NCBI GenBank assembly: GCA_016839365.1
Contig: JAEOUH010000067.1
Coordinates: 1 to 53,935 of the forward strand
Reading direction: 5' to 3'
Length of the DNA stretch: 53,935 bases
From: Candidatus Hermodarchaeota archaeon
GTDB taxonomy: Archaea; Asgardarchaeota; Hermodarchaeia; Hermodarchaeales; Hermodarchaeaceae
Part shown: positions 19,359-34,217 of the stretch, in pieces
How positions within the stretch are numbered: the stretch's first letter is position 1
How the letters are laid out: every line of letters starts with the position of its first letter
The notes under the pieces: generated by a model
What the model saw: the letters and a program-made list of their open reading frames with translations, nothing else
Databases searched by the model: none
Told to the model about the DNA's origin: nothing
Position numbers and translations under genes: made by a program

Positions 19359-21566
19359 CTACTTGCGAACTCGAATATGAGAGTCCAGAACAGTCTGGAT
19401 TGGTTTGTCGCTGAAGTGTTGCGTGAGTCGTTCGTACTTCCAGCCGAGGGGTGTCAGGAGGGTATCGGTGGCGCGAAGCAGCAGCTCGGTATACTTGTCC
19501 TTGTCATAGTGGGTCGCCGCTGCGGTGTGGGGGAGTGCCACGCGTCGCAAGGGGTGGCGGGACGTGGAGTCAGTGTGCACGTATTTGATGGCTTGTCCCG
19601 GTTGGATGTCGTGTCCATATCGGATGGCAAGTTTGGCGGCAATGGCTTGGCTGCACTGCTGCTGGTATTCGTGGGGGGATCGGCTGATGTGTTGGGTGAT
19701 GATGAGGTCATCGGGGGTTACTCCACCGCTGTGCAGAAGGTCGAGGTATTCTTTGACGATGTCGAGTAATTGCGGGAGCAGCTGCTGCATCTCATCGGTG
19801 TCTTCGGCACCCGCCAGGCAAGTGAGGAGGTCCATCTGGAGCTGCTTGATGAGCGGTGGGGTATCACGGCGTCGCAGCTCAATGCCCCGGGCTTTGATAG
19901 TACCATCGTGTTTTACCCCGCAGTAGCGCGTCAGCGCGCCGTAGGGTTGATTGCGGCATGGCAAGAACATGATCCATCGGTAACGGCCTTCAAACTCCAT
20001 CGGCAGTCCGGTTACTTCCTCAACCACCTCGCTGAGGGCCAGATAGTCTTCAACGGAGGCGCCAGACTTCTGCAGCCAGACGCAGTCCACAATACCATGG
20101 AGCACTTGAAAGCCCTTGCGTTCACAGACGGCCTTGGTCTGCAGCAGTACGCGTCGGCTGAACGCCGTGACACACTCGTACGCTTCGACGCGACCAAAAC
20201 GTGAGGCTCGAAACCCGAGATAGCCAAAGGAGACGACGAGGAGCCATTTCAACGCAGCTTGCCGCGCCTCATATACGGGGTCATCATGGCGGTGTCGCTT
20301 GTAGTAGGTTCGCTTCTTCAGAATGGGCTCAAGGAAGGTGGGCACGATGCCGCGCTGGCGCCGACACAGCCAATAGCCAACCTCGGGAACCACAGTGGCA
20401 TCATCGGGACAACAATCGCAGAACAAGGCTTCCGGCGAGATGTTGTACTTGACCATCAGCGACGGATACATCGACAGGAAGTCGAGTTCGCCCACATCAC
20501 TGAAAACACCAACGCGCGGGGTGATGACGTGACCACCCCGGTCAGCGTTGAGGAGCTCAAGCCCGGTCTTGTACTCCTCGGGGTCCGCTTTGGTTTCGGG
20601 AATCAGAACGCCTCGATTGAGCGCCTCTTGCATCTGGAGCATATTGATGCCGGTGCCCGGGCTGCTTCGGGCCATCCGCTGGGGTGGAAAGGCGGTAATC
20701 CGACTTGACTCGACGAGCCCCTCAAAGTTGCCAAAAGTCATATGCGACCGATCCAGATGCAAACGTCCATGGAGTAGAAATGGATGAGGACGATAAAACA
20801 CCGGGCCGCCATACCGGAAGACCGCACGACCTGCCGGGAGGGTCTTGTCACTGAAGACATGAGGGGTGTCATCCCGGCTCAGCGAAAACTGGTGCAACAT
20901 CCCCTCCTCTTGAACGCGTCGAATCAGGGTGGGGAAGATCCGGGAGTCACCGTCTTCGGTGAAGATGATGTCTGGATCATGGGTATTAATCCAATCCTGG
21001 AGCATCATGGGCTCTGTGGTCTGCAACGTGTCACCCGAGGAGCTGGTGGCACAAAACAGGTCTTCCCCTTCTAGGCGGAGATCCACAGTATCAAAGGTAG
21101 GAAGAGCATAGTCGAGGGCCCACCGGGAGTCGCAGGAGTCGATGTGGGTAACACGGGTCCCCGACTGGTCGGTGTGAACCTCCACCTGCTCGAAGGGGAA
21201 GCGCCGCTGCTCGAGATACCAAAGTTGGGTTGCGGAGAGATCGCCGTTGAAGACGCGAAAACGGGGGACGGCGAGGGTCTTGATTTCGCGGACGACGCGA
21301 GAGAGTTGGGTGCAGGAGGAGACTGTTACGGCAAGAACTGGTCGTCGCGTGCCCCGCAACTGCAGCCGGTGAAATGCCGGGGTCACAACGCTCACCAGTG
21401 GGTGATTTTCGAACAGCGGCGCATAGTCCTCGAATTGGACGCCGGGTGCATGTAAGTAAAATTGTGGCTGATAAGGCACCTCCAAGGGAACGCATTGTGT
21501 TGCCGTGCGCAACCACAAGACCAAGTGGTCGGGCCGGGGAGTTATGTCGAGGATCCAGCCACGCAT
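19359..21566 (-). CDS. polB2: Family B DNA polymerase, PolB2 type
   Basis: DFLSMYPS (motif A), KWLLVVSFGYLG (motif B), HGIVDCVW replacing YGDTDS (motif C), KARGIELRRRDTP; degenerate exonuclease region. Confidence 0.88.
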   Translation of the reverse strand: MRGWILDITPRPDHLVLWLRTATQCVPLEVPYQPQFYLHAPGVQFEDYAPLFENHPLVSVVTPAFHRLQLRGTRRPVLAVTVSSCTQLSRVVREIKTLAVPRFRVFNGDLSATQLWYLEQRRFPFEQVEVHTDQSGTRVTHIDSCDSRWALDYALPTFDTVDLRLEGEDLFCATSSSGDTLQTTEPMMLQDWINTHDPDIIFTEDGDSRIFPTLIRRVQEEGMLHQFSLSRDDTPHVFSDKTLPAGRAVFRYGGPVFYRPHPFLLHGRLHLDRSHMTFGNFEGLVESSRITAFPPQRMARSSPGTGINMLQMQEALNRGVLIPETKADPEEYKTGLELLNADRGGHVITPRVGVFSDVGELDFLSMYPSLMVKYNISPEALFCDCCPDDATVVPEVGYWLCRRQRGIVPTFLEPILKKRTYYKRHRHDDPVYEARQAALKWLLVVSFGYLGFRASRFGRVEAYECVTAFSRRVLLQTKAVCERKGFQVLHGIVDCVWLQKSGASVEDYLALSEVVEEVTGLPMEFEGRYRWIMFLPCRNQPYGALTRYCGVKHDGTIKARGIELRRRDTPPLIKQLQMDLLTCLAGAEDTDEMQQLLPQLLDIVKEYLDLLHSGGVTPDDLIITQHISRSPHEYQQQCSQAIAAKLAIRYGHDIQPGQAIKYVHTDSTSRHPLRRVALPHTAAATHYDKDKYTELLLRATDTLLTPLGWKYERLTQHFSDKPIQTVLDSHIRVRK

Positions 21567-21719: not shown

Positions 21720-23624
21720 TCAATCCGTCGAGGAACCACAAATGGGACAATAGCGGGCACGAGGCGGAACTGCTCCACCACAATAGGCGCAGAATTTCGT
21801 GCTTTCGGTCGGTGATTGTGCTGAACGGGCTGTGTATGTTGTGGTGGTGTAGCGGTGCGGTGGTTCGGTACTGCTAGATTGTCTTTGTCGGTAGATGATG
21901 ATGACGATAACGCCAACGAGGATGCCGACGACAATGCCTGCTATTAACATGATCATGGTTGGAGGAGGTATTGGAAAGATAGGACCAGTACCTGAGGGAG
22001 TATTAACTTGGAGCAGAAAGATACCGGCGCTAAGATAGCCCGTTGGATACGAATATACCTCAATGTAGTAGGTGTCACCTGCGTTCAAACTGATTGTGAT
22101 GGTTTCTGACGAGTCAGAGCTAATCGACTCAGCCAGTTGGTTTTGGTAGGCATTGTAGATGTAGAGGTCAAAATCAGTTTCATATTGGGCCCAGGCCGCA
22201 TCAATGGCAAAGGTATACGGACCTGTTTCTGTTGCTGTGAAGATATAATATACAGAATCGTAAGCGCCTTCAAGATATCCACAGTGCAGTCCCGGAATAG
22301 CTCCTGGGCCTTGATATTGCACGAGCGGGTAAGCTTCAGTAAATGATGCACCGATATTTAGATAGGCCTCGATGAATTCATCCCATTCTGTATCGGTGGC
22401 AAGCGCGAGTTGATGAGATCCATAAGTGCCAAACACAACTCCTAGCCCATTGGCGTCAGGAACGTCACTTAAGTGTAATTCCTCGTATACGGCAGCTTGG
22501 ATGAATGTGGATAAATTAGTGGCCCTTTGAAGGTACGGATTAGTATTGAGGTGAGTGGAAAGAGATGAAGCGAAAGAGCCCAAGTCAATGAATTCAGTCC
22601 ACGAGAAGCTTTGTGTGCTTTCTCTTGCCCAGGATATCGCCTCATAGAGCTGGGGATCGTTCATGTTTGTATAAAGTAACAGTGCAAGTTCATTCAATGT
22701 CTCTGCAACTGCCTCGAGCATGTCACATTCGACAGCGGATAGACAAATATCAAGGCTCATTGGATCATAGTATCGTCCACCAATATCGTAGGCTGTTACA
22801 TAATAGTAAACAAGGCTGGTCGCCACCGTTCTGGGGTTAGAGGTTGGAAATGTCGTGAGGTTGAGCAGTATGTCTTCGTATGGAAATCCCGTCACAGGAA
22901 CTGATTCTTCGGAAAACACTATCAAATCCGCCGTATCACGGATTTCGTAAGCGACTTCAACTTGCCCCATCAGGCAGGCATCAAAGGCAACGATGTCTAA
23001 ATGCTGAATTTGTGGATCACTGAGCGATTGTTCCAACTCCTCAATCGTTAGCTGAGAAAGGCTTGTATCATCTTCACACAACCCAAACGCTCCACTACCA
23101 TGATCCCAAATAATCAACAGATAATTATCAGCAGGAGCGTACGATTGACCAAACACGATGAAATCGCGGAGAATGGTGGGTGAGCCCATATCCGGTTCCG
23201 TTGGTAGTGGTGTAGCAAGTTCTACAGAGTTAATAACGTTAAGATTCGAATCTTGGCTCACTTCGTAGCATTTTGCGCCGGTGAAGGGTGCATAGGTTCC
23301 GTCCCAAAAATCAACTAGTACAATTATTTTCACATCTTGTGTTGATCCAATTGTCTCCATTGAGTTCAGATCATCGAACGCGTACTCTTCTAGATTGTTA
23401 TCTCCATCAAGATATACTAGAACTGTCCAGTTATCATTCCCGTTTTGCATTTTCGCCTGGCTAGTAAACGTCATTAGCTCGTTTCCGAAATCAGGCTGTT
23501 TCAATTCAACACTCTCAGCCAAACCAGTTACTTGAACAGGTGTTATTATAGTACTCAAAAGAAAGGCAAAGGTAAATGCCAGGATGAGGAAGCCACGATT
23601 ATTGAACAATATCTCCCACCTCAA
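21720..23624 (-). CDS. Clostripain-family (C11) cysteine peptidase, membrane-anchored, with PPC-like domain and cytoplasmic zinc ribbon
   Basis: WTVLVYLDGDNNLE, WDHGSG (His), FDACLMG (Cys), DFDLYIY...SETI...GDTYYIEV, TM helix, CAYC...CPIC. Confidence 0.88.
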   Translation of the reverse strand: MRWEILFNNRGFLILAFTFAFLLSTIITPVQVTGLAESVELKQPDFGNELMTFTSQAKMQNGNDNWTVLVYLDGDNNLEEYAFDDLNSMETIGSTQDVKIIVLVDFWDGTYAPFTGAKCYEVSQDSNLNVINSVELATPLPTEPDMGSPTILRDFIVFGQSYAPADNYLLIIWDHGSGAFGLCEDDTSLSQLTIEELEQSLSDPQIQHLDIVAFDACLMGQVEVAYEIRDTADLIVFSEESVPVTGFPYEDILLNLTTFPTSNPRTVATSLVYYYVTAYDIGGRYYDPMSLDICLSAVECDMLEAVAETLNELALLLYTNMNDPQLYEAISWARESTQSFSWTEFIDLGSFASSLSTHLNTNPYLQRATNLSTFIQAAVYEELHLSDVPDANGLGVVFGTYGSHQLALATDTEWDEFIEAYLNIGASFTEAYPLVQYQGPGAIPGLHCGYLEGAYDSVYYIFTATETGPYTFAIDAAWAQYETDFDLYIYNAYQNQLAESISSDSSETITISLNAGDTYYIEVYSYPTGYLSAGIFLLQVNTPSGTGPIFPIPPPTMIMLIAGIVVGILVGVIVIIIYRQRQSSSTEPPHRYTTTTYTARSAQSPTESTKFCAYCGGAVPPRARYCPICGSSTD

Positions 23625-23693
23625 ATGCCATTCAAGGTCCCTATTCGTAATCTCTCCTAATAAGCTTACAGTTTGATAAAAGAGGCTGAAACC

Positions 23694-23783
23694 TCAATGG
23701 AGGTCAGTTTCTATTATCGTATTCCTTAGTAATATGATTTCTTGCTCTTTGATGTCCTTATCCCGTTGCTTTTCTGCATTCCA
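23694..23783 (-). pseudogene. Displaced original 3' end of the MFS gene at 30388-31689
   Basis: Minus strand reads WNAE-KQRDKDIKEQEIILLRNTIIETDLH-stop in the same frame as the shared core; followed by GAGG-TTTCAG-CCTC hairpin and TTTT. Confidence 0.7.
23772..23783 (+). repeat. Left attachment-site core TTCTGCATTCCA
   Basis: Identical to 30403-30414; 16/19 identity over 23770-23788 vs 30401-30419. Confidence 0.8.
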
Positions 23784-23824
23784 AAAAAGATGATTGATTA
23801 ATTTCTTTTTAATTCGATTCTAAA

Positions 23825-23853
23825 TACGTTATAAATGAGTGTAAGTACGTTAT
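23825..23853 (+). promoter_or_regulatory. TATA-like box with tandem TACGTTAT direct repeats (candidate operator)
   Basis: TACGTTAT at 23825-23832 and 23846-23853 (21-bp period) overlapping TTATAAAT, just before ATG 23858. Confidence 0.5.
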
Positions 23854-23857
23854 CAGT

Positions 23858-24130
23858 ATGATTGAAAGCACCACTAGGAGTATCTTAAGATCTGGCGATT
23901 CACGAGGTGTAGCACTTTCTCCTAAATGGCTTGAAAGATACAAACCAACGCGTCTTAATGTTGTTCATGTAAATGGATTTGTCCTTGTTTTCCCGGTTGA
24001 ACAAGCTAGTTTCCTAGAAAACAACTTTGGAAAAATTGTAGCAAAAGCGGTTGAAAAAGCCATTATCAAAAATCAACTACCAAGAGATCAGGAAAGTGAG
24101 CAGAGTGACCCCTCAGGAAAAACCGAGTGA
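23858..24130 (+). CDS. AbrB/MazE/SpoVT-like DNA-binding protein
   Basis: RSILRSGDSRGVALSPKWL matches the swapped-hairpin signature (GxSxxVxLPxxW-like). Confidence 0.65.
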   Translation: MIESTTRSILRSGDSRGVALSPKWLERYKPTRLNVVHVNGFVLVFPVEQASFLENNFGKIVAKAVEKAIIKNQLPRDQESEQSDPSGKTE

Positions 24131-24836
24131 ATTTTGTGAAGATATTTTCACAATAAAAGACTTACTAGCAGAAATCTATAGGCGAAGAAAAGACCGTACT
24201 CGACCTTGTGAAGACACTACGACTACCACGACAAACTTCCAAACTTCCAAAGAGGGTTGTTCACGTGAAGATAATTTCACAAAGGTTTCCATTAATCGTG
24301 TATTCCAAATTCTCACTGGGCCCCAAGTCTACGGACTTTATCGCGGAAAATCCTCTAAAGAAACCGCGAAGCTCGTTCACTACTTAGCATTAAACCGGGG
24401 AGCCATCACCATTCGCAATCCGAATATTCTAGGACCTAAGGGCATTTTCACAGATCGCCGGGAGCTTCATAACGTAATGCTTAAACTCGAAGATTTGGGG
24501 CTTGTCGAGAAGTATTTACAAAAACCCTGGAGTGGTGGTCGACCTTTCGCCATCTGGAAAGCAGTGTGGGCATCAAATAGCGATGTACAACTTGCAATAG
24601 AAGAACACAACAATTCACTAGATAAGCAAAACTATCCAGAGATTCCACCAACCGGTATCCCAAATGAAAAGCAGCTTATCAAAGCGTCAATGGGACCAAA
24701 GAAACAATGGACCTCTGAAGATCAGGTTAGAAGGGCTAAACATATTCTTGAAGATCCTAATTCAAGTAATTCCCTTAAAGAAGCAGCACAAACCACACTT
24801 CAAAGACTTGTGAAGGAGGTGGAAGTGAGTGAATAA
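24051..24836 (+). CDS. Hypothetical element protein with probable winged-HTH (possible replication or regulatory protein)
   Basis: ELHNVMLKLEDLGLVEK...GGRPFAIW resembles a wHTH recognition helix and wing; start uncertain. Confidence 0.5.
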   Translation: MKKPLSKINYQEIRKVSRVTPQEKPSEFCEDIFTIKDLLAEIYRRRKDRTRPCEDTTTTTTNFQTSKEGCSREDNFTKVSINRVFQILTGPQVYGLYRGKSSKETAKLVHYLALNRGAITIRNPNILGPKGIFTDRRELHNVMLKLEDLGLVEKYLQKPWSGGRPFAIWKAVWASNSDVQLAIEEHNNSLDKQNYPEIPPTGIPNEKQLIKASMGPKKQWTSEDQVRRAKHILEDPNSSNSLKEAAQTTLQRLVKEVEVSE

Positions 24837-24966
24837 TGCGCTCTCCGTTGCGATCTCAGTTCTCGCGCTCTTCATCGGAACCACAATGGACCTCATCCTC
24901 AAGGCCACGAACCTCGACGTCACCCATTCGGTAGACCCGAACCAAATCCTTGACTTTTATAAATGA
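24829..24966 (+). CDS. 45-aa small membrane protein not in the ORF track (MNNALSVAISVLALFIGTTMDLILKATNLDVTHSVDPNQILDFYK)
   Basis: GTG start overlapping the upstream gene end; strong GGAGGTG SD at 24815-24821; one hydrophobic helix. Confidence 0.5.
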   Translation: MNNALSVAISVLALFIGTTMDLILKATNLDVTHSVDPNQILDFYK

Positions 24967-24973
24967 CATTTTT

Positions 24974-27787
24974 TCACCTCAATACTGAAAGATCATAACG
25001 GGCAACCCGTGCCTCAATGAAAATCGGAATAAACGTAGCTAGGAGTAGCATGCCTATAATAAGTCCTGTCTGAAGGAGAAACATCCCCAAAAATTCTGGT
25101 GGCAAGAAACGGGCAGATAGGAGTGGTGGAACAATATTCGCCGTCCCTCCACTCACAAATCCGTTATAGATTATCAATCCCACAATGAATCCAATAAAGA
25201 TCGCAAACACAATTATAGTGAAGATTTCTGCCAGTAATATTATCACAGTCTGAGAATACGTCATTCCACGGGCACTCATTAAGGCAGTAATAGTGCGGCG
25301 TTCCCTGAGCGTTAAGTAGATGATGACCAGTGTGCCCACTGAGGCGAGAAGAAAAGCACAAATTACACCCAACTGCATCATATTCGTCGTGGAGCTAAGA
25401 ACAGCATTCGAGTTGTACTCTTCAATGTCTGTGATGGCGGATTCAACACGCAGGACATCATCTAAGGCTTCGATGGCCTCGACGACAGCGGTATTGTCTA
25501 TTGGTGAATCGAGAGCAACGAGAACGTGACCTGTTGGTGTGAGTTCATTGGAAAATTCTTCCATTAATTCGACTGGAACGTAAGACCAGGTTTCCTCCGC
25601 GAGCCACTCACTGACCCAGGGATACGGATTCAAGATGGGATCTGGTCCCATATAACTGACAACCGTTAGATTATGATATGAATCAGAATCTGAGAATTGT
25701 ACAGAAATATTGTCTCCTAAATCAACACCTAATTCGACAGCATGCCGTTTTTCCAAAATGATTGTCCTATTTGCGGCTGCAAGTTGTTCGAAGGCAGCGA
25801 GGCTGGAAAGCCCTGATATCCAGTCAGGCTCCCAGTACGCTACTCCCAGCCATTCACTCACATTAATTGCCCGAACGTTTAAAATACCAACTCCAGCAAT
25901 CGTAAACCTATACTGTCCTGCGGCTCCGCTTACACCGTCAATCGCTCGAATCGTTGAAAGTAGATCAGTAACGTTTTCCGGTGCGCTAACTCGGACATTC
26001 AAATCGGCTCCTACGGTGGTATAGGCGTCTCTTACAGCCAGGTCTAGACTAGTGCCCAAAATTCCAATTGACTGGACACTATAGCCGATTAATAACGCTG
26101 TAATAAAGATAATCGCCGCGGTTCGACCCAGTCTCCGTCGAATGTTAAGCGATGCAAGCCCTCCCAATTCACCGAGTACCCGGCTAATGAATCGTTGAGA
26201 GTACGTATAGAAACCTTTCCAGCCTTTCACGATGATTGTGACAAGACCCCATAGGAAAAGGAGTGGGACCCAGAAAGTAATGAGGGCATCAAACAGTAAC
26301 CAAAAGCTTGCAAATGAAGCCAAAAAGGGATTCGTAAACCTGAGTTGGAGCACAATTTCAGTGACATTGATGCCTAGAAGCCAAATGACTAGCTTGTAAC
26401 TACCCAAAATTAACGCTGTCCAAGCAAGCATTCTTGGATATGACAAGGTTTCTCCGACTGTTGAATATTCACGAATTGCTTCAGTCGTCGGAATCTTTGA
26501 TGCCTTACGAGCGGGAAGATAGGAGGCAATAACTGCAAGGAAGACACCAAACATTATAGTCAAAAATATCGTGTCTAATCCGATTCCTGTTGCAATAATG
26601 GAAGCCCACGTCACCGTTGAAATGAAGAATGGAATAAGAAAAATTGTTAATACTATACCAAGAAGACTTGCCACGAGTCCGATGAGGAGGGCTTCCCAGA
26701 CGAATAGGCTTGTTATTGTGCTCCGGGTTACTCCTTTGGTGAGAAGGAGACCGACTTCACGGCGCCTTATGGAATATGACACGTCGTTTAAGGTGATTCC
26801 CATATAGAGCGCAATGAAAAAGACTGGAATCGACACCTGGAGGAAGACTACGCGAAAGTTCTCCGAAATACTCACAAAAAAGTTAAGGGTCCAAACAAGC
26901 GGTGGCAGAAACGATCCGTAGTATCCCTGAGAAGATAATGAATTTTCAATACGATATGCTAGTTGCTGCAATTCCTGGGCTGAGAGTTGAACGTTATACG
27001 GGTTGATTGAAGTTACTCGATCCACAAAGATGAAAATGAACTGATCCAGGTCAGTAAAAACTACTTCAGGATCCGTCGCAGCATGATCAAATATTGGTAG
27101 GAAGGTTGATTCGACATCAACGAGAAAGAAGCTGAAGTAGTGTTGATACCAGGAGGGTTGGTAACCTGGGTAAGGGGTTTCATACTTGAGTAAGTCTTGA
27201 GCTTGAGATGTTAGTTCAACATGACCCACAACCTCTAAGGTAAGATTATAGATAATTGTCATATCAATATCAGTACCGGTATCTTCCCAGATTCTGACTC
27301 CAATGGAATAATTACTCCCAACTGGGTAATTTGCAGCTTGTGCAGAGCTTGCGGTGAGTAATGTTTGATTGGCCTCTAGATTCATAGTCCCGGAAATTAG
27401 TGTCATCCCGTCATAGACGGTCGAGTTGTGCTGAATGCCACTTGTGAGTATTAATTGTTCTTCTAGTGGTTTAGTTGCGTCAATTAAGTGGTGCTCATAG
27501 GATCTAATGAAAAGTTCTGAACGGGTAACCTCTGAGTAACCCTCGATGATCTGCCTCATCGAAAAGAAATCTGATCTATTATAAATTTCCCTGTACCTAT
27601 ATGTAGAAACCTGCCAGGTCAAATCAACGGCAACATCTTCAAGAATATCGTACAGCATGGCTACCATCATGGAGTTACCACCGATATTTGAAGCGGCAAA
27701 CAATGTAGTCGCTATCATGACGCCCATAAGGATGGCGAAAATGAGCTTTTTGTTCCGGGTTGTTCGACGGACAGCGTATCGATACAC
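24974..27787 (-). CDS. FtsX/MacB-like ABC transporter permease (two permease repeats)
   Basis: RRREVGLLLTKG and ERRTITALMSARG motifs, ASYLPARKAS, GADL, two large extracellular domains. Confidence 0.88.
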   Translation of the reverse strand: MYRYAVRRTTRNKKLIFAILMGVMIATTLFAASNIGGNSMMVAMLYDILEDVAVDLTWQVSTYRYREIYNRSDFFSMRQIIEGYSEVTRSELFIRSYEHHLIDATKPLEEQLILTSGIQHNSTVYDGMTLISGTMNLEANQTLLTASSAQAANYPVGSNYSIGVRIWEDTGTDIDMTIIYNLTLEVVGHVELTSQAQDLLKYETPYPGYQPSWYQHYFSFFLVDVESTFLPIFDHAATDPEVVFTDLDQFIFIFVDRVTSINPYNVQLSAQELQQLAYRIENSLSSQGYYGSFLPPLVWTLNFFVSISENFRVVFLQVSIPVFFIALYMGITLNDVSYSIRRREVGLLLTKGVTRSTITSLFVWEALLIGLVASLLGIVLTIFLIPFFISTVTWASIIATGIGLDTIFLTIMFGVFLAVIASYLPARKASKIPTTEAIREYSTVGETLSYPRMLAWTALILGSYKLVIWLLGINVTEIVLQLRFTNPFLASFASFWLLFDALITFWVPLLFLWGLVTIIVKGWKGFYTYSQRFISRVLGELGGLASLNIRRRLGRTAAIIFITALLIGYSVQSIGILGTSLDLAVRDAYTTVGADLNVRVSAPENVTDLLSTIRAIDGVSGAAGQYRFTIAGVGILNVRAINVSEWLGVAYWEPDWISGLSSLAAFEQLAAANRTIILEKRHAVELGVDLGDNISVQFSDSDSYHNLTVVSYMGPDPILNPYPWVSEWLAEETWSYVPVELMEEFSNELTPTGHVLVALDSPIDNTAVVEAIEALDDVLRVESAITDIEEYNSNAVLSSTTNMMQLGVICAFLLASVGTLVIIYLTLRERRTITALMSARGMTYSQTVIILLAEIFTIIVFAIFIGFIVGLIIYNGFVSGGTANIVPPLLSARFLPPEFLGMFLLQTGLIIGMLLLATFIPIFIEARVARYDLSVLR

Positions 27788-28046
27788 ACCAAATCCCTGC
27801 TCACGAACCTAATATGTTTCGGAGCCTAAAAGCGTTAAGTTTCAGGAAACCATCCTTAGTAGTAAGTGGCTCTAATTTGTCCCGAAGTTTGGAGGTGGAA
27901 TGTTTGTTCTCAGAAAACTTCACGCGCCGAGAAACGGATGGGAAGGGGTACGTCCGTAATCCAAGAATGGCGGGCGGAGCTCTGGCAGGACAGCGCATTT
28001 TCGGTTCTTCGCTTATGAAAAGAAATTCCGAAAAATAGAAAATCAA

Positions 28047-28319
28047 GAAGAACACCCCCATAACATCCGCCTGACGAACTGCAAAGGAAAATAGGAAAAG
28101 GGGCCTAGCATAGGAAAACGCCCTAAGAGCCCCAAAGAAGGTAGGGGTAGTTCTTCGGTTTGTTCAGTTGTTTTTAAGAAGAAAAAACAATTCAACAATT
28201 TAGAAATCCAGACAACACACCCCTATTGCCCTCGAAACCGCCAATTCTCCAGCTCAGGATGCTGTAAAACCACGTCAGAAACTCGTGCTGAAAAAATAGA
28301 TGTGGGGTGTGTTGTTTGG
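28047..28319. repeat. Two pairs of related inverted repeats ending in C/G runs
   Basis: GAAGAACACCCC (28047) / GGGGTAGTTCTTC (28144); CCAGACAACACACCCC (28208-28223) / GGGGTGTGTTGTTTGG (28304-28319, 15/16); ~160-bp period. Confidence 0.55.
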
Positions 28320-28446
28320 TTTGAAGGGTAGATATTTTGAGGTATTTTGTTGTCTAAACGAATTAGGAGAACTATTCGATAAAGAAAATAAGTCGAATAG
28401 ACTTCTTGTTAGAATATTTAAGTAGATATTTTCTGAGTTATAATAT

Positions 28447-28914
28447 ATGAAAAAGAAAACCTCCGCGCAGCAATTTAAAGACTGGCTATGGTGGACTTGG
28501 CTTCTGTGGTTGAATCTGGCTATCACGATAATTGTTGCGTTTCTGAACATTCAAGTGGTGAGTGCTATTGCAGTTTCCATATTGCAGGTATTAATCCAAG
28601 TATATGGAATTTTATTTGCATTTACAGCAGTAATCTTTAGTGCGATTTATGCCTCGTTATCAACCAAAGCGATGAAAGAGTCTATTGAAGAAAGTCCTAG
28701 GTTTATGACTGAAACTGCGAAACCCCGATATGATGCACTTAAGAGTTTCTTGAAGGCGTCAACGGCGATTCTCATAACTTCAGTGGTTGGGATTGTAATA
28801 ATCATTCCACTAGTTGCACCCCTAGCAACACTTCCTGCCTTTCTACTCGTTATGTGGACTGTTCCGTTGTGCCTTGAAGCGGGAGTTCTACAATGGTTTG
28901 CTACAAAAGTATAG
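28447..28914 (+). CDS. Hypothetical 4-TM membrane protein (element cargo)
   Basis: Hydrophobic AT-rich ORF preceded by TATTTAAG. Confidence 0.65.
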   Translation: MKKKTSAQQFKDWLWWTWLLWLNLAITIIVAFLNIQVVSAIAVSILQVLIQVYGILFAFTAVIFSAIYASLSTKAMKESIEESPRFMTETAKPRYDALKSFLKASTAILITSVVGIVIIIPLVAPLATLPAFLLVMWTVPLCLEAGVLQWFATKV

Positions 28915-28942
28915 ACAAAATGGAGGAATCGAAACAACTTAA

Positions 28943-30349
28943 TTAGGGCTTGTCCTTCCTCATTTCTTCTCTTACGATTTGCTTCACCACGACGATTCCT
29001 GCAGCCTCATCGAGTGTCATTTCACCGCGCTCAACAAGATACCAAACACTGCTGAAGTAATGATGAACATGTTCATCTGTGATTTTTCCGTCGAATGTGT
29101 CAAATACAGCCTTGTGTGACTGAATAACTTCTCTCGAAAGTCTTTGAGATAATTTCTGCTCTTGAAGCAGGTCCTCTAATTTGAAGAGTTTGTCATACTC
29201 CTTGAATTTTTGTTCGGAATGTTGTTTTTGCTCAGCATATTGTTGTTTCAGAAGATCTATCTCTTCTCGATATTGCTCAGCTGCCCTCCGATTTTCTTTG
29301 ATAGATTCTCGATGTAGTTCAACAGTTTCTCTATCCTGAATCTGCCCGCAATGAGGACAATAGACACTCGTTGGACTGAGTACTTCCCTGCAATTAAGAC
29401 ACTCTTTCCTGATTTGCGGCTCTTCAACTGTCTCAACGTGCGGTTTGATGCCAAGACGTTTCGCATAGCGTTCATGAACCGCATTGGGGTTCTGACGAAT
29501 GTACCGGCGCATTTGACTGCTGTTTGGAACCCAGCCACCCATTTGTGCGATATCCCACGAATCCAGATCATATTTTTCTTTCATCATGGAGGCCCACTGC
29601 TTCCGAAGAAGGTGCGGGTGCACGCGCTTCTTAATCCCAGCACGTTTCGCAGCCTGTTGGACAATGCGCTTCATCGCTCCGTATTTCAATGGGTAGAGCT
29701 TCCCGCCTTGTTGGTAACACCAAAGGGGATCATTATCCTGCTGAGTGGGGTGCAAGGTGAGCCATTGTTTGAGATCCGCGGCGTAATAGTAGATTGGAAC
29801 CCAGCGTTCTTCCCGATCCTTCGTGTGCCGGACATGAATCTTGTAACCATGCGGTACCTTCTCCACATCACCAAAAGCCATATACCCTGCTCCGGTTTTG
29901 CGCGCAGGGGATTCTTTGGGAAATTCTGCTAAGGCTCCGATTCGCATTCCGCCTTCAATGAGCACAACAAGCAGAGCCTTATCACGCGGGAGAGTGGCAG
30001 CACTTATCAGTTGCTGGAGTTCAGCATCACTCAAGATTTCGGGGGATTCGATGGGAATCGATTCCTTCTCTAGCTTTGGGTGGTTCATTACTTCCGGTTT
30101 CTTCAGGTACTTCTTGAAGAAATGGTGAAACGTATCACGCGCAGTGTTTCGCGTGGCAGTTTTCAACTCATCCAGTGTTCGTAGGTACTTGGCCAGATCG
30201 TCAGCACTCATCGCCTCGAAAGGCTTCGCTATGTGTTCCGCAAGTTTCGTGAGCCAATAGGTGTAGCGATCCTTCGTAGCTTGGCTGCGCTTTTTATCGG
30301 TGAGGTGCTGGATGAAACGTTTGAGAGTGGCTCCTTGCTCCGGCAACAT
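28943..30349 (-). CDS. Tyrosine recombinase/integrase with C-terminal zinc ribbon and coiled coil
   Basis: SAM-like N-domain; catalytic R (GMRIG), K (HTKD), HxxR (HPHLLRK), W (GGW), Y (MRRY); CLNC...CPHC. Confidence 0.92.
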   Translation of the reverse strand: MLPEQGATLKRFIQHLTDKKRSQATKDRYTYWLTKLAEHIAKPFEAMSADDLAKYLRTLDELKTATRNTARDTFHHFFKKYLKKPEVMNHPKLEKESIPIESPEILSDAELQQLISAATLPRDKALLVVLIEGGMRIGALAEFPKESPARKTGAGYMAFGDVEKVPHGYKIHVRHTKDREERWVPIYYYAADLKQWLTLHPTQQDNDPLWCYQQGGKLYPLKYGAMKRIVQQAAKRAGIKKRVHPHLLRKQWASMMKEKYDLDSWDIAQMGGWVPNSSQMRRYIRQNPNAVHERYAKRLGIKPHVETVEEPQIRKECLNCREVLSPTSVYCPHCGQIQDRETVELHRESIKENRRAAEQYREEIDLLKQQYAEQKQHSEQKFKEYDKLFKLEDLLQEQKLSQRLSREVIQSHKAVFDTFDGKITDEHVHHYFSSVWYLVERGEMTLDEAAGIVVVKQIVREEMRKDKP

Positions 30350-30387
30350 AATTATCCTGTAAGTATTTTCATCCTAAAAATAAAAAG

Positions 30388-31689
30388 TTAACTATCTGCA
30401 TCTTCTGCATTCCAGAAGAACAAGGCATATAGCACAGTTTGGGTTCCATAGAATGCTAGAGTCAACCAGAAGGGGATTAGGTATAGCCCTTGGTCGAAGA
30501 GTTGTCCTGCGAATTGTACGCTAGTGGCTCGACCGAAACTCATGGCGGAAGTATTGAGGGCTTGAAGATTCGGGCGCCAGGAACTGGGAACTAACTCCAT
30601 GCGGAGGGTTTGCCCGATGGGCATTGTCGCGTTCATTAATGCATTTCGAAGCAAGTAGCTGATGATGGCAATTAAGGGATTCACCACTGAGGCAAGGAGG
30701 ATGATGAAAGGTAACGATAATGCTTGGGTTATCACCACGGAGGGCACCTTCCCAATTCGGGTTGACAGAATGGGCGATAGGAGAACCCCAGTTGCCATGG
30801 TCGCTTGTCCAAGTCCGATGATAAGCCCCACCATATAGGTGGGCAAGTTATAGAATTCCCAGAAGAAGACGTTAATTAATGGAACAATGAGGCCTGCGCC
30901 CAAACCAATAAGGACACTACAGATAACAAACCGAAAAACAATGCTGATTCGACCTTTAGGTTCAAGTGACGGTATGGAATCTGGGGCTAGATCGCGCTCC
31001 TCGGATGTTTTGGCAGGTGGTCTTGATTCTTTCATACCTAAGAGGGGGATTATTCCGATAACACTTGCGATAATCCAGATGATGAGTGTGAGTTGGAAGG
31101 TAATAGGACTGTCGATTGGAACAAGGAACCACAGGGCAAAGAGTCCGGGTAGAAACCCACCAAGCAAGCTACCGAAGAAACTAGAACCTATCCGGGAGGC
31201 CTGCGAGGTTCCAAAAAGGTGAGTCCGTTCATACGGAGAACTACTCCGGGCCATCAAAGGGCTGTATGAGGTAATGGAAAGACTGTTTCCAAAATAGAAC
31301 AAGATCATCATCATGATCAAGATTTCAGGAATTGGGATGGTGATCAGTGCGCTGGCAGCGATAGCCATGACTACTCCTGATAAAACCATGGTTGTCTTTT
31401 CACCAATCCGAGTGGTATAGGGACCAGCGATTAAGGCACCAATTGCCATGGTGTATAAGCCCAAAGACAGTAGCCCGGCAATGAAGCCCGTGGAAAAGCC
31501 AACTGATAGCAAATAGAGGTTGAAGATAGCCTGGTACATTCCAAAGCCCAGTCGGCTGATTGCCTGGCTGATGATGACTCGTCGTGCATTTGGAGTAAAC
31601 CGTTGAACTCTATGCCAATAAGCAGCTGCCTCTGAACTAAGACTCTCAGCGAGGTTCAACGACTGGCTCCTCCAAAACCATGCAAACAA
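30388..31689 (-). CDS. MFS transporter (integration target; last four residues DADS derive from the element)
   Basis: About 12 TM; RIGEK and RIGKV loop motifs; paralog of 32898-34217. Confidence 0.88.
   Translation of the reverse strand: MFAWFWRSQSLNLAESLSSEAAAYWHRVQRFTPNARRVIISQAISRLGFGMYQAIFNLYLLSVGFSTGFIAGLLSLGLYTMAIGALIAGPYTTRIGEKTTMVLSGVVMAIAASALITIPIPEILIMMMILFYFGNSLSITSYSPLMARSSSPYERTHLFGTSQASRIGSSFFGSLLGGFLPGLFALWFLVPIDSPITFQLTLIIWIIASVIGIIPLLGMKESRPPAKTSEERDLAPDSIPSLEPKGRISIVFRFVICSVLIGLGAGLIVPLINVFFWEFYNLPTYMVGLIIGLGQATMATGVLLSPILSTRIGKVPSVVITQALSLPFIILLASVVNPLIAIISYLLRNALMNATMPIGQTLRMELVPSSWRPNLQALNTSAMSFGRATSVQFAGQLFDQGLYLIPFWLTLAFYGTQTVLYALFFWNAEDADS
30403..30414 (+). repeat. 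Right attachment-site core TTCTGCATTCCA (within the last codons of the MFS gene)
   Basis: Identical to 23772-23783; encodes WNAE on the minus strand. Confidence 0.8.
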
Positions 31690-31831
31690 CCGAGGACGAC
31701 TACCCCGCGTTCTTGATATGGCAATTCGGTAGTCCTTGCCTCGTGCTTACAATAATAAAAGCTTGTGAAAGGATAAGAAAAAAGGAAATGCGACGTCGCG
31801 AAGATTCCAGGGCCCTGAGTGCGAGAATGGC

Positions 31832-32035
31832 TTAAGCGCTTTTCTTCTCTTCTTTTTCAAGGTCGGAGATCCGTTCATCAATGTGCTTGATGTAGTCTTC
31901 AAGCTGGGCTTTCATGGCTTCCAGACCTTTGATGCGAGCTTCTTTACTCGGTTCATATCCGGGACTGCAGCACATCTGACCTATGAACGGAGCCATACCT
32001 CGGAACCTGAAGTGGTGTTCTGTTGGTCCACACAT
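31832..32035 (-). CDS. Small Cys/His-rich coiled-coil protein (DUF5320-like)
   Basis: MCGP..HH...CC then SKEARIKGLEAMKAQLEDYIKHIDERISDL; AGGTGA SD; co-transcribed with padR. Confidence 0.65.
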   Translation of the reverse strand: MCGPTEHHFRFRGMAPFIGQMCCSPGYEPSKEARIKGLEAMKAQLEDYIKHIDERISDLEKEEKKSA

Positions 32036-32048
32036 AGCTGTTTCACCT

Positions 32049-32621
32049 CTATTCTAATTCGTCAGAGCTTTTCAACTCGGTGAGTCGTTTTTCAACCCAT
32101 TTCAGTTCACGTTCCAGGTATTCCCGATAGCGTTTCATGAATAGGAGGTGTCGTGGGGTACAATGGCCCGGTTCGCAATCACATTGTATCTTCATGGCCA
32201 TGAAAGCTGCAGGGCTTTGCTCGCGGACACTCCAATCTAAAAGTTCGTCTTGGGCTTTGCCATTCATGCTGGTTCCTAAGAACCGCCAAAAATGGTCTTG
32301 CGCTTTGAACTCGGACCTGAGATTACGAAGCGCTTCGTCGAGTACCTTTTTCCCCTTTGGGGTCAACTGATACTCTACGGCATCTGGGCGGTCCTCTTGG
32401 GTTACCCGTTCACTAGAAATAAGGTCTCGTTCAGCCATTCTATGGAGTGCAGGATACACTGTACCGCTCTTCAGCCTCCAGCCACCAAGTCTGCCCTTCA
32501 GACCTTGCAGCACACGATAGCCATGCGCTGGACCCTGATTCAAGAGGGTGAGGATGATAATTTCTACGAAGCTGACGCTGCCTTCACTAGTTTCAATGCG
32601 TCCTTTACCACAGAATGCCAT
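32049..32621 (-). CDS. PadR family transcriptional regulator
   Basis: GPAHGY, SGTVYPALHRM, YQLTPKG; Cys/His-containing C-terminal coil. Confidence 0.9.
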   Translation of the reverse strand: MAFCGKGRIETSEGSVSFVEIIILTLLNQGPAHGYRVLQGLKGRLGGWRLKSGTVYPALHRMAERDLISSERVTQEDRPDAVEYQLTPKGKKVLDEALRNLRSEFKAQDHFWRFLGTSMNGKAQDELLDWSVREQSPAAFMAMKIQCDCEPGHCTPRHLLFMKRYREYLERELKWVEKRLTELKSSDELE

Positions 32622-32638
32622 TATGTAGTCACCGAGTT

Positions 32639-32681
32639 ATGTAGTGCTCTACATAGCTATGTAGAAGTCTACCTATATAAA
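32639..32681 (-). promoter_or_regulatory. padR promoter: TATA box plus two PadR-type boxes
   Basis: ATGT-N8-ACAT (32639-32654) and ATGT-N8-ACCT (32659-32674) between the minus-strand TTTATAT (32681-32675) and the padR start. Confidence 0.65.
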
Positions 32682-32897
32682 CCTTCTCACACTACGATAT
32701 CATCAAATATAACGCTATCGCCAACCACCTTTTCTAAAAAAACACTCGGATCCTTCAAGCTAGGACTGGGGATTGGCCTCATCTTCATGATTACTGGTAT
32801 CATCATTGTCTATGTACTGATGCGACGACGATTCTAAGTCACACCATCCACCGGACCAATGGGACAAATTCCTGTCACGGTCCAGCGTTCTCTCTTG

Positions 32898-34217
32898 TTA
32901 GCTCACCTTGTTGGTGTTGTGTCCATGAGTATGTTTCTGTCTTTTCTCGATATTCCAAAAGAACGCTGCATATAGAAAGGTGGATGCTGAATAACTACCA
33001 AGAGTGAACCAGAACGGAATTAAATATAATCCCAAATCGAAGAGCGGACCAGTCACAAGAGTGCTAAATGCCCAAGGGAAATTCCAGGCAAACGACGATG
33101 CCGCACTCATCTGTGGACGGTAAGCTTCTGGAGTCAATTCCATTCGGAGTGCTTGATCCACCGGACCGCTAGCATTCATGAGAACTACACGAAACAGGTA
33201 GCTCACAATCGCGATAAAAGGGTTGATGATGGTGGCGATGAAGAAAAGAAATGGAAGTGATAAACTTTGGGTTACGAGAACGGTTTTCACCTTTCCGATT
33301 CGCGTTGATAATACTGGTGAGAGAAAAGCACCCGCAGCAACTGAAAGAGATCCAAATCCCTGAACGAGTCCAACCATGTAGGTGGGGAGGTTATAGAAGT
33401 CCCAGAAGAAAATGGTCAGATAGGGGATAACGAAACCAGCCCCAAGGCCAATGAACGCATTAACAATCCCGAATCGAAGGAGAAGTCTTCGTACATCTTG
33501 TTTAGCGACAGGTTCAATTTCTACAACTTCGTAGGGAATCTCACGAGGTATGGGCTGATCCTTTTCACGTACAAGAAGGAGTGGAACAATGCCTAACGAT
33601 AATGGGAGGGCTTGGATGAGGAGTGCCAGTTGAAACGTAATAGAGCTATCCAAGGGGAATCCGAAATAAATGGCGAACATACCTGGGAGAAATCCGGCTA
33701 ATGTGTTGGCGAAAAAGGAGCTAAGAATGAACGCTGATTGGGAGGTGCCAAATAAATGCGTCCGTTCATAAGAAGTGCTACATTTGGCTAAGAAGGGACC
33801 AAAAGCCACATTACGCATAGCCTGTCCGAGTCCACTGATTATTGCCATTGTATAAAGAATGGGAGGCAGAGGAAAGAGAATCTGGGTCATTGATGCTAAA
33901 AACGTGATGAATGAAGCCAGTATGAGTGAACGTTTGGTGCCGAACCGTGAGACGAGAAATCCCATAAACAGTGAGCAGATGGCCATTGTGAAAGCGTTGA
34001 TGGACATGAGGCTTCCGACAAAGGTGTTAGAATAACCTAAACTGATGATGTAAAGGTTTAACAGGGTTTGAGAAATTCCCCAACCAAAGGCAGAGAAGAC
34101 GTTACTAAGAATCAGCTTTTGTGCATTAGGTGTGAACTGGCGCATACGTTGCCAGTAGCCAATAGCATCCTGCCGTAACGTATTACTCAAAAGGGTCTCC
34201 TCAAATAGGGAAGGCAC
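32898..34217 (-). CDS. MFS transporter, paralog of 30388-31689
   Basis: Shared FTPNA, YERTHLFGTSQ, LSTRIGKV and FFWN.E segments. Confidence 0.88.
   Translation of the reverse strand: MPSLFEETLLSNTLRQDAIGYWQRMRQFTPNAQKLILSNVFSAFGWGISQTLLNLYIISLGYSNTFVGSLMSINAFTMAICSLFMGFLVSRFGTKRSLILASFITFLASMTQILFPLPPILYTMAIISGLGQAMRNVAFGPFLAKCSTSYERTHLFGTSQSAFILSSFFANTLAGFLPGMFAIYFGFPLDSSITFQLALLIQALPLSLGIVPLLLVREKDQPIPREIPYEVVEIEPVAKQDVRRLLLRFGIVNAFIGLGAGFVIPYLTIFFWDFYNLPTYMVGLVQGFGSLSVAAGAFLSPVLSTRIGKVKTVLVTQSLSLPFLFFIATIINPFIAIVSYLFRVVLMNASGPVDQALRMELTPEAYRPQMSAASSFAWNFPWAFSTLVTGPLFDLGLYLIPFWFTLGSYSASTFLYAAFFWNIEKRQKHTHGHNTNKVS

Follow-up and report, generated by a model that had tools for sequence, protein, structure and literature searches.

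A probable integrative element in the 3′ end of a Hermodarchaeum transporter gene, with chromosomal cargo drawn from a related lineage

The window, that is, the whole 53,935-nucleotide stretch of contig JAEOUH010000067.1 (assembly GCA_016839365.1) analyzed here, belongs to a Hermodarchaeum genome of the Asgard archaea, class Hermodarchaeia (G000 in our numbering), which bears out the Asgard assignment of the first-pass annotation, and contains a 6,631-bp tyrosine-integrase element at the 3′ end of a gene for a major facilitator superfamily (MFS) transporter. The element lies between two copies of a 12-bp direct repeat (23772–23783 and 30403–30414, as the first-pass annotation had them, with no further copy in the 2.2-Mb assembly), one within the last codons of the MFS gene and the other toward a gene for a clostripain-family protease. 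Besides the integrase gene, it holds two small genes for putative DNA-binding proteins, a membrane protein gene, and a gene for an ATP-binding cassette (ABC) permease. That the element is real and bounded by this shared attachment (att) core is as good as certain, and it is highly probable that we are dealing with a small Hermodarchaeum integrative element whose own tyrosine integrase inserted it. Its GC content differs little from that of the genome (43.7% versus 45.9%). The features at its two ends are listed below by window position, with attP denoting the joined site of the circular form and attB the empty host site.

23694–23771, minus strand: displaced native MFS 3′ end (25 codons and stop), host DNA outside the element; a contig of run X1 joins this tail to the MFS gene
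23772–23783: att core at the clostripain-side junction, containing a 7-bp spacer, GGAATGC (minus strand), and inner arm bases; a contig of run X7 (23579–24189) spans the junction
23784–23857: AT-rich element arm of attP, 71% identical at the DNA level to its counterpart in the sister contig L054; probably the promoter region of the small regulator gene orf90
28943–30349, minus strand: tyrosine integrase of 468 aa (Pfam PF13495 and PF00589), its gene intact after integration
30350–30402, minus strand: element arm that supplies the last four codons and TAA of the present MFS gene, then a T-rich tract; the 25 nt past the core are almost identical in L054
30403–30414: att core at the MFS-side junction, encoding W-N-A-E
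30388–31689, minus strand: target host MFS transporter gene (Pfam MFS_1, E=4e-29), 433 aa versus 454 aa in the reconstructed empty allele

The two junctions read as the halves of one interrupted gene. The MFS gene now ends WNAE-DADS-stop, and the minus frame from 23783 continues WNAE with 25 further residues to a stop at 23694, where a hairpin overlaps the stop and precedes a T-run, the native terminator displaced along with the tail. Deleting the 6,631 bp between the 12-mers restores a 454-aa transporter with its 25-residue tail. These readings agree with the first-pass annotation, as does the end of the paralogous MFS gene (32898–34217; FFWNIEKRQK), and its proposal of site-specific integration into a protein-coding gene, with 25 residues exchanged for four, is upheld by empty sites in two other data sets. 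In G007, the closest relative, the MFS gene (91% identical) is uninterrupted and directly adjoined by the clostripain gene, and its 25-residue tail is 76% identical to the orphan tail of the window (68/78 nt, or 87%, versus 89% for the gene body). The clostripain gene directly follows the MFS gene in all nine same-genus loci that reach past it (10 were fetched), and none of the 10 same-genus orthologs, all with long tails, ends in DADS, the ending that the first-pass annotation expected of element-less relatives if the repeat were coincidental.

The second empty site comes from the same species: in a contig of run X1, position 23771 is followed directly by 30403, with exactly 6,631 bases left out and 12 letters shared, while other X1 contigs cover element genes. 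In run X7, from another study, a contig crosses the clostripain-side junction; the MFS-side junction is not among the contig pieces examined from four runs. The species is thus polymorphic with respect to the element, whether through excision or through a mixture of strains. Possibly the assembly itself came from the X1 sample, which leaves the existence of the empty form unaffected. No RNA data set was listed among the holders of the element, which has no bearing on its expression.

A third state of the site is found in a sister element. The Logan contig L054 (from SRR34261176) carries an orf90 homolog, the core, and an integrase gene in the joined (attP) order, with the two genes pointing apart, and its alignment to the circle rebuilt from the window sequence continues through the junction. 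Assembly error on a 12-base overlap is an unlikely source of this join, as such contigs are built on 31-letter words. Past the core, the 25 nt nearly identical to those of the window would yield WNAE-NEDS-stop and the same T-tract, and because these bases are shared, the supplied stop is a conserved property of attP. We accept the 12-mer as real because the empty site of G007, the exact empty joint of X1, and the joined sister site place the break at the same 12 bases.

The integrase comprises a SAM-like N-terminal domain, a catalytic domain, a zinc ribbon, and a coiled C-terminal extension, and the catalytic residues that the first-pass annotation called intact are all present (R136, K177, H246-x-x-R249, W273, and Y283). 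Its reading frame starts 54 nt from the core, so the att site lies outside the gene. Two close homologs were found, at 77% (L054) and 69% (L053) identity; 18 genomes of the family contain no close homolog, 400 genomes of the phylum gave only distant matches of 34% identity or less, and integrase searches of JGI metagenomes and IMG/VR returned no match. No tRNA gene was seen in 16 distant-integrase loci, most with flanks of only 1.5 kb, and we draw no conclusion about targets from them. The check proposed in the first-pass annotation, whether integrase homologs abut MFS 3′ ends with the same core, was borne out in part: the 77% homolog lies beside the same core in its attP form, but none was caught next to an MFS gene.

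Within the core, the spacer GGAATGC is located between imperfect inverted 9-bp arms, the arrangement that tyrosine recombinases require. The arms match at seven of nine positions in the empty site (attB) and in the L054 attP, and at six of nine at each junction, relative to a genome background for 7/9 arms of 0.16% with a 7-bp spacer and 0.48% over spacers of 6–8 bp. The spacer falls on the W-N-A codons of the MFS gene and is kept in seven of the 10 orthologs; protein conservation may thus keep the site available across the genus. The swap point lies past the last hydrophobic stretch of the transporter, and since ortholog tails vary freely in sequence and length (about 16–30 residues after the core), the exchange is probably a neutral repair of the target gene rather than a switch. 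The T-tract of the element may replace the native terminator, serve as a TATA box for the integrase gene, or both.

The largest gene inside the element has a different history. The first-pass annotation placed cargo genes there, and they are present, but it did not recognize the main cargo as a chromosomal segment of another species:

24906–24966, minus strand: stub (about 20 codons) of a host LolD-like ABC ATPase gene, cut at the segment edge (DNA alignment to G004 and G005)
24974–27787, minus strand: MacB/FtsX-type ABC permease, 937 aa, intact, a foreign second copy of a host gene (Pfam FtsX, E=1e-13)
27788–27917: captured host promoter region and first codons of a divergent 168-aa host gene, the other segment edge (DNA homology to G004)

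DNA homology to G004 extends over 24906–27917, about 3 kb, and includes the stubs of both neighbor genes; in G004 and G005 (Ca. Hermodarchaeum yapensis, of the same genus as G000) the full 296-aa ATPase gene follows the permease gene. The permease gene occurs across the family, and G000 also has a native copy, split over contigs C4 and C26. In the half that all of them share, cargo identity is 77% with G004 and 66% with the native copy, which is itself 87% identical to G007. In the permease tree the cargo groups with G004 and G005 (100/100) and the native copy with G007, as G000 pairs with G007 in the MFS tree; a topology constrained to unite cargo, native copy, and G007 is rejected (p-AU 7e-5; approximately unbiased [AU] test under LG+G4, four distant rows left out). 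The stubs of both neighbor genes, together with the tree, show that the 3 kb were taken from a lineage related to H. yapensis; the donor is an unsampled relative of that group, another Hermodarchaeum lineage. The two parts of the native gene (C4:14321–16174 and C26:1–1081) are both at contig ends, which probably makes C26 and C4 neighbors in the chromosome. Variants in the cargo comprise eight synonymous and nine non-synonymous changes, a partial list from low-depth contigs that we did not use.

The rest of the element consists of the backbone genes orf90 and orf243, a non-coding region, and a membrane protein gene:

23858–24130, plus strand: orf90, a small AbrB/MazE-like (antidote-like) protein, candidate element regulator
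24105–24836, plus strand: orf243, a predicted winged-helix DNA-binding protein with a poly-Thr linker, candidate initiator or regulator
27990–28450: non-coding element region with blocks 82–91% matched in L053 and L106 and a 19-nt inverted repeat (28205–28223 and 28304–28322)
28447–28914, plus strand: orf155, an element-borne membrane protein with four helices predicted by hydropathy; an 82% identical homolog lies beside the L053 integrase gene

The AbrB-like label that the first-pass annotation gave orf90 stands on its motif; the profile match, to an addiction-module antidote, reaches only E=0.21, and neither orf90 nor the six homologs examined has a Pfam match. Homologs occur in L054 (51%), L108 (59%), and L121 (46%), with aligned counterparts in G007, L106, and L109. 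The winged-helix annotation of orf243 is backed by a predicted fold with a confident core (predicted local distance difference test [pLDDT] of about 90 over residues 81–170; an earlier model, at pLDDT 44, was unusable). The model resembles the winged helix of TFIIIC tau138 (VIA Z 9.7, root-mean-square deviation 2.6, 93 aligned) and Stf76 of pSSVx (Z 7.2). The protein belongs to no named family and matches no named Rep family; Foldseek gave nothing at E<=0.001, the ESM Atlas was uninformative, and a search of GTDB contigs gave no match. Homologs of orf243 are rare, numbering 10 among 1.8 billion representatives and found in 2 of the 400 phylum genomes searched. With orf155 as query, the 18 family genomes gave no match. 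The non-coding region is a possible origin or transfer signal. Three short open reading frames (ORFs; 27760–28038, 27801–28061, and 28275–28550) were rejected as genes: they overlap captured promoter or non-coding DNA, and the two that were scanned have no Pfam match.

The same backbone recurs in other company. Homologs of orf243 lie behind an orf90-like gene in G007, L106, L108, L109, and L121, and near three other integrases (G007, L119, and L121); in G007, L108, and L121 they are followed by a 288-aa gene (orf288) encoding a helix-turn-helix (HTH) and a possible nuclease-like C-terminal part. The G007 example is a second element (L077:130–8531, contig C33) of 8,393 bp with the same layout and an unrelated 443-aa integrase. 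A 9-bp repeat bounds this element, which is intergenic, between divergent genes for an apparent M20 peptidase and an NfeD-like protein, at a site with perfect 6-bp arms and a 6-bp spacer that is empty in G000 (C17, about 42060). Because the orf90/orf243 module sits beside differing integrases and sites, the backbone is modular. We propose tentatively, as a serious possibility still somewhat short of probable, an undescribed family of small Hermodarchaeia elements with an AbrB-like and winged-helix backbone, perhaps including a new kind of replication initiator, that swaps integrases to use different non-tRNA sites and transfers chromosomal genes from one Asgard species to another.

Two further contigs bear relatives of the backbone. 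L121:1–6263 (6,263 bp) contains integrase, orf90, orf243, and orf288 homologs in circle-like order; its integrase gene (product 34% identical to that of the window) points away from orf90 as in a circle, and the contig may be a complete episome. Joining its ends gives an immediate stop codon for the integrase, which, in a contig that has no terminal repeat, is only suggestive. A 129-aa gene on L121 is RelE/ParE-like by eye and has no match in NCBIfam or PHROGs. L106:6600–12200 is a decaying relative with no recognized integrase, in which orf73, a truncated orf243 homolog, and metabolic genes accompany a conserved non-coding block matching window positions 27990–28059.

Insertion of the window element would follow the phage lambda fashion, with the integrase binding the two imperfect inverted 9-bp arms of a DNA circle and its target and exchanging strands across the 7-bp spacer. 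The incoming arm would bring an in-frame stop four codons on, along with the T-tract, so that the membrane part of the transporter is kept and only the variable tail is lost. In the circle, the integrase gene and the AbrB-like and winged-helix genes would diverge across attP, the latter two probably controlling expression, excision, or replication. At some point the element acquired 3 kb of chromosome and brought that ABC permease into this species, where the permease, arriving without its own ATPase, would need that of the host (G000 C4:13423–14313). Because capsid and conjugation genes are lacking, spread would most likely depend on a helper element or host DNA exchange, the weakest step of this scheme.

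Several observations weigh against this account, and the alternatives draw on them. The 12-mer alone is a weak sign, since a direct repeat of at least 12 bp lies within the preceding 10 kb in 10% of random 150-bp windows, and within the family the element is carried by a single genome. A chance repeat or assembly artefact is nonetheless practically ruled out, because the empty allele, the clostripain-side junction, and the joined sister site come from separate data sets and share the same 12-base break. The dyad was spotted only once the site was known and so supports recombination there rather than proving it. Searches of JGI metagenomes and IMG/VR for the core-plus-arm pattern gave no match, and the element holds no replication gene of a known family. 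The L053 integrase gene, with no core upstream, adjoins an unrelated gene, and we give it no weight as support for the target site; its N-terminal third is more diverged, and this 3-kb scaffold, with its junction unconfirmed, is either chimeric or a recombinant with a virus. The adjoining gene (L053:20–660, 201 aa) has a weak PHROG match (E=0.0016). This match, the small size, and the combination of an integrase with divergent regulators but no transfer genes could point to a helper-packaged virus satellite or a remnant of a larger provirus. We consider this unlikely given that Pfam and PHROGs recovered no capsid, terminase, primase, or helicase genes and IMG/VR no match, although a satellite would be compatible with our preferred integrative element as one possible route of spread.

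A more substantial doubt concerns the activity of this copy. It may share the origin proposed here and now be immobile, a backbone gene having been lost as the cargo came in, with the empty site in X1 contributed by strains that never carried the element. The orf288 gene is missing where the cargo sits, so the copy may be partly defective; its reconstructed attP has a weaker dyad (4/9 versus 7/9 in L054); the branch leading to the cargo is long (0.34 versus 0.19); and the circle junction that the first-pass annotation suggested looking for was not seen for this exact copy in the four runs (contigs only, depth 2–7), the joined form being known from the sister. Against this, all element ORFs are intact and the catalytic residues of the integrase kept, the orphan tail has decayed little beyond the gene body, and runs from several studies contain element DNA that differs only at scattered positions. 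We regard immobility as possible but doubtful, and it would alter only the claim of activity, not the identity of the element. It is very improbable, in turn, that integration and excision toggle two functional transporter C-termini as a regulatory switch. Both MFS alleles exist in the species, and the four-residue end and stop are conserved in two elements with integrases of 77% identity; however, the conserved 25 nt hold a predicted integrase-binding arm as well as the T-tract, enough to account for their conservation with no function for the peptide, the ortholog tails are unconserved, and stop supply is an ordinary way of sparing a target gene (PMC6563490).

The integrative element favored here resembles several known systems. 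Phage 21 and e14 in icd, and SXT/R391 in prfC, have att cores in coding sequence and rebuild the end of the gene. They bring a long homologous stretch that replaces the gene end, whereas the window element gives just four unrelated codons and a stop. With its catalytic residues, an intact integrase gene with att outside, and a direct repeat matched by an empty site, the element falls among those of archaeal type II (non-suicidal, lambda-paradigm) integrases, whose genes stay whole after integration (Badel et al. 2021, PMC8371274), and we infer attP × attB recombination. Coding-region targets are known for this type, including a heavy-metal efflux gene for provirus Msmi-Pro1, and dyad symmetry in coding-region att sites has been called an open question (PMC8371274); relative to that set, the 7-bp spacer and inverted arms are visible in the coding-region att of the window element. 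It does not belong to the pNOB8 subfamily sensu stricto (Y-x-x-R, PMC8371274), as its integrase has H246-L-L-R249, nor to the suicidal SSV/pTN3 type, as the gene is whole and the core outside it.

As a multi-gene element that is no provirus, casposon, integrative conjugative element (ICE), or insertion sequence, and that appears to work like a lambda-type integrative circle, it fits the class of cryptic integrated elements (CIEs). Only the integrase and FtsX scored above curated cut-offs when five ORFs were compared with Pfam, and only the integrase fell below 1e-3 when the four non-FtsX ORFs were compared with PHROGs, in line with the earlier statement that capsid and conjugation genes are not recognizable. 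None of the five matches VirB4/VirD4 or relaxase families in Pfam or PHROGs, which sets an ICE aside; for a casposon, Cas1 and terminal inverted repeats are absent, and the nearby PolB gene is chromosomal and syntenic in relatives. Chromosomal XerA was also rejected (91.8 bits versus an NCBIfam cut-off of 220, and no close homolog in the family genomes).

In Thaumarchaeota, 14 of 68 integrated mobile genetic elements (iMGEs, casposons included) lie in protein-gene 3′ ends (Krupovic et al. 2019, PMC6563490). The CIE NitEve-E2 is similar in its short att (13 bp versus 12 bp here) in the 3′-distal part of a protein gene, its new TAA, and the empty site in a relative (PMC6563490). It differs in swapping 8 nt including the stop, where here 25 residues give way to four, and in its thaumarchaeal host and zinc-finger-gene target (MFS here); the backbone of the window element is without a named family. 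Yucahu-i and iMGE-xvi of Atabeyarchaeia likewise have an Asgard host, 8–11 kb (6.6 kb here), an 11-bp att, HTH genes and cargo, a tyrosine integrase in the case of Yucahu-i, and integrated, empty, and circular forms (Valentin-Alvarado et al. 2024, PMC11529989). In the part of that report considered here, Yucahu-i is set apart by three genes that the window element lacks, those for an SF3 helicase, a Holliday junction resolvase, and restriction-modification, and by an AT-rich att with no protein-gene repair described.

No published description of this element family, nor of any mobile element of Hermodarchaeia, was found in the literature searched. The first-pass annotation was right to that extent in calling the element undescribed but overstated its novelty, as protein-gene 3′-end insertion with stop supply is already documented (PMC6563490); the novelty lies in the host group, target, and backbone and in the cargo from another species, and the C-terminal swap is the least surprising part. 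CRISPR arrays are reportedly lacking in Hermodarchaeia (PMC13700489), which means that the elements of these archaea will not come to light through spacer matching. In relatives, four short DNA matches considered as CRISPR spacers lie in long open frames without repeats and were attributed to chance. The permease with stubs of both neighbors is a clear instance of chromosomal DNA being brought by an element from one Asgard species into another. With sequence in hand for the empty site, the integrated form, and the joined site of a sister, all from one recombination system, a direct integrase assay is possible and would address the point about dyad symmetry left open in PMC8371274. If the modular, gene-moving family proposed above is borne out, it would be a documented vehicle by which genes flow within this lineage, and its integrase and att site would offer Asgard genetics a ready pair of tools.

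The neighboring genes vary among relatives as well. In the interval 30388–34217 of the window, a PadR gene and a small gene lie between two MFS paralogs of about 46% identity; several relatives have further genes there. The clostripain-family protease (window 21720–23624) has about 630–660 aa in G000, G007, G006, and G011, and about 1050–1110 aa, with a long extra N-terminal region, in five relatives (loci compared: L027–L031). The PolB gene, uninterrupted in the window (19359–21566), has an in-frame, intein-like insertion of about 530 aa near residue 446 in G005 (L029:7513–11313); G006 (L032:489–4550) has one at about that position with the frame broken, and in G003 (L027:8465–11129) one begins there and runs off the contig.

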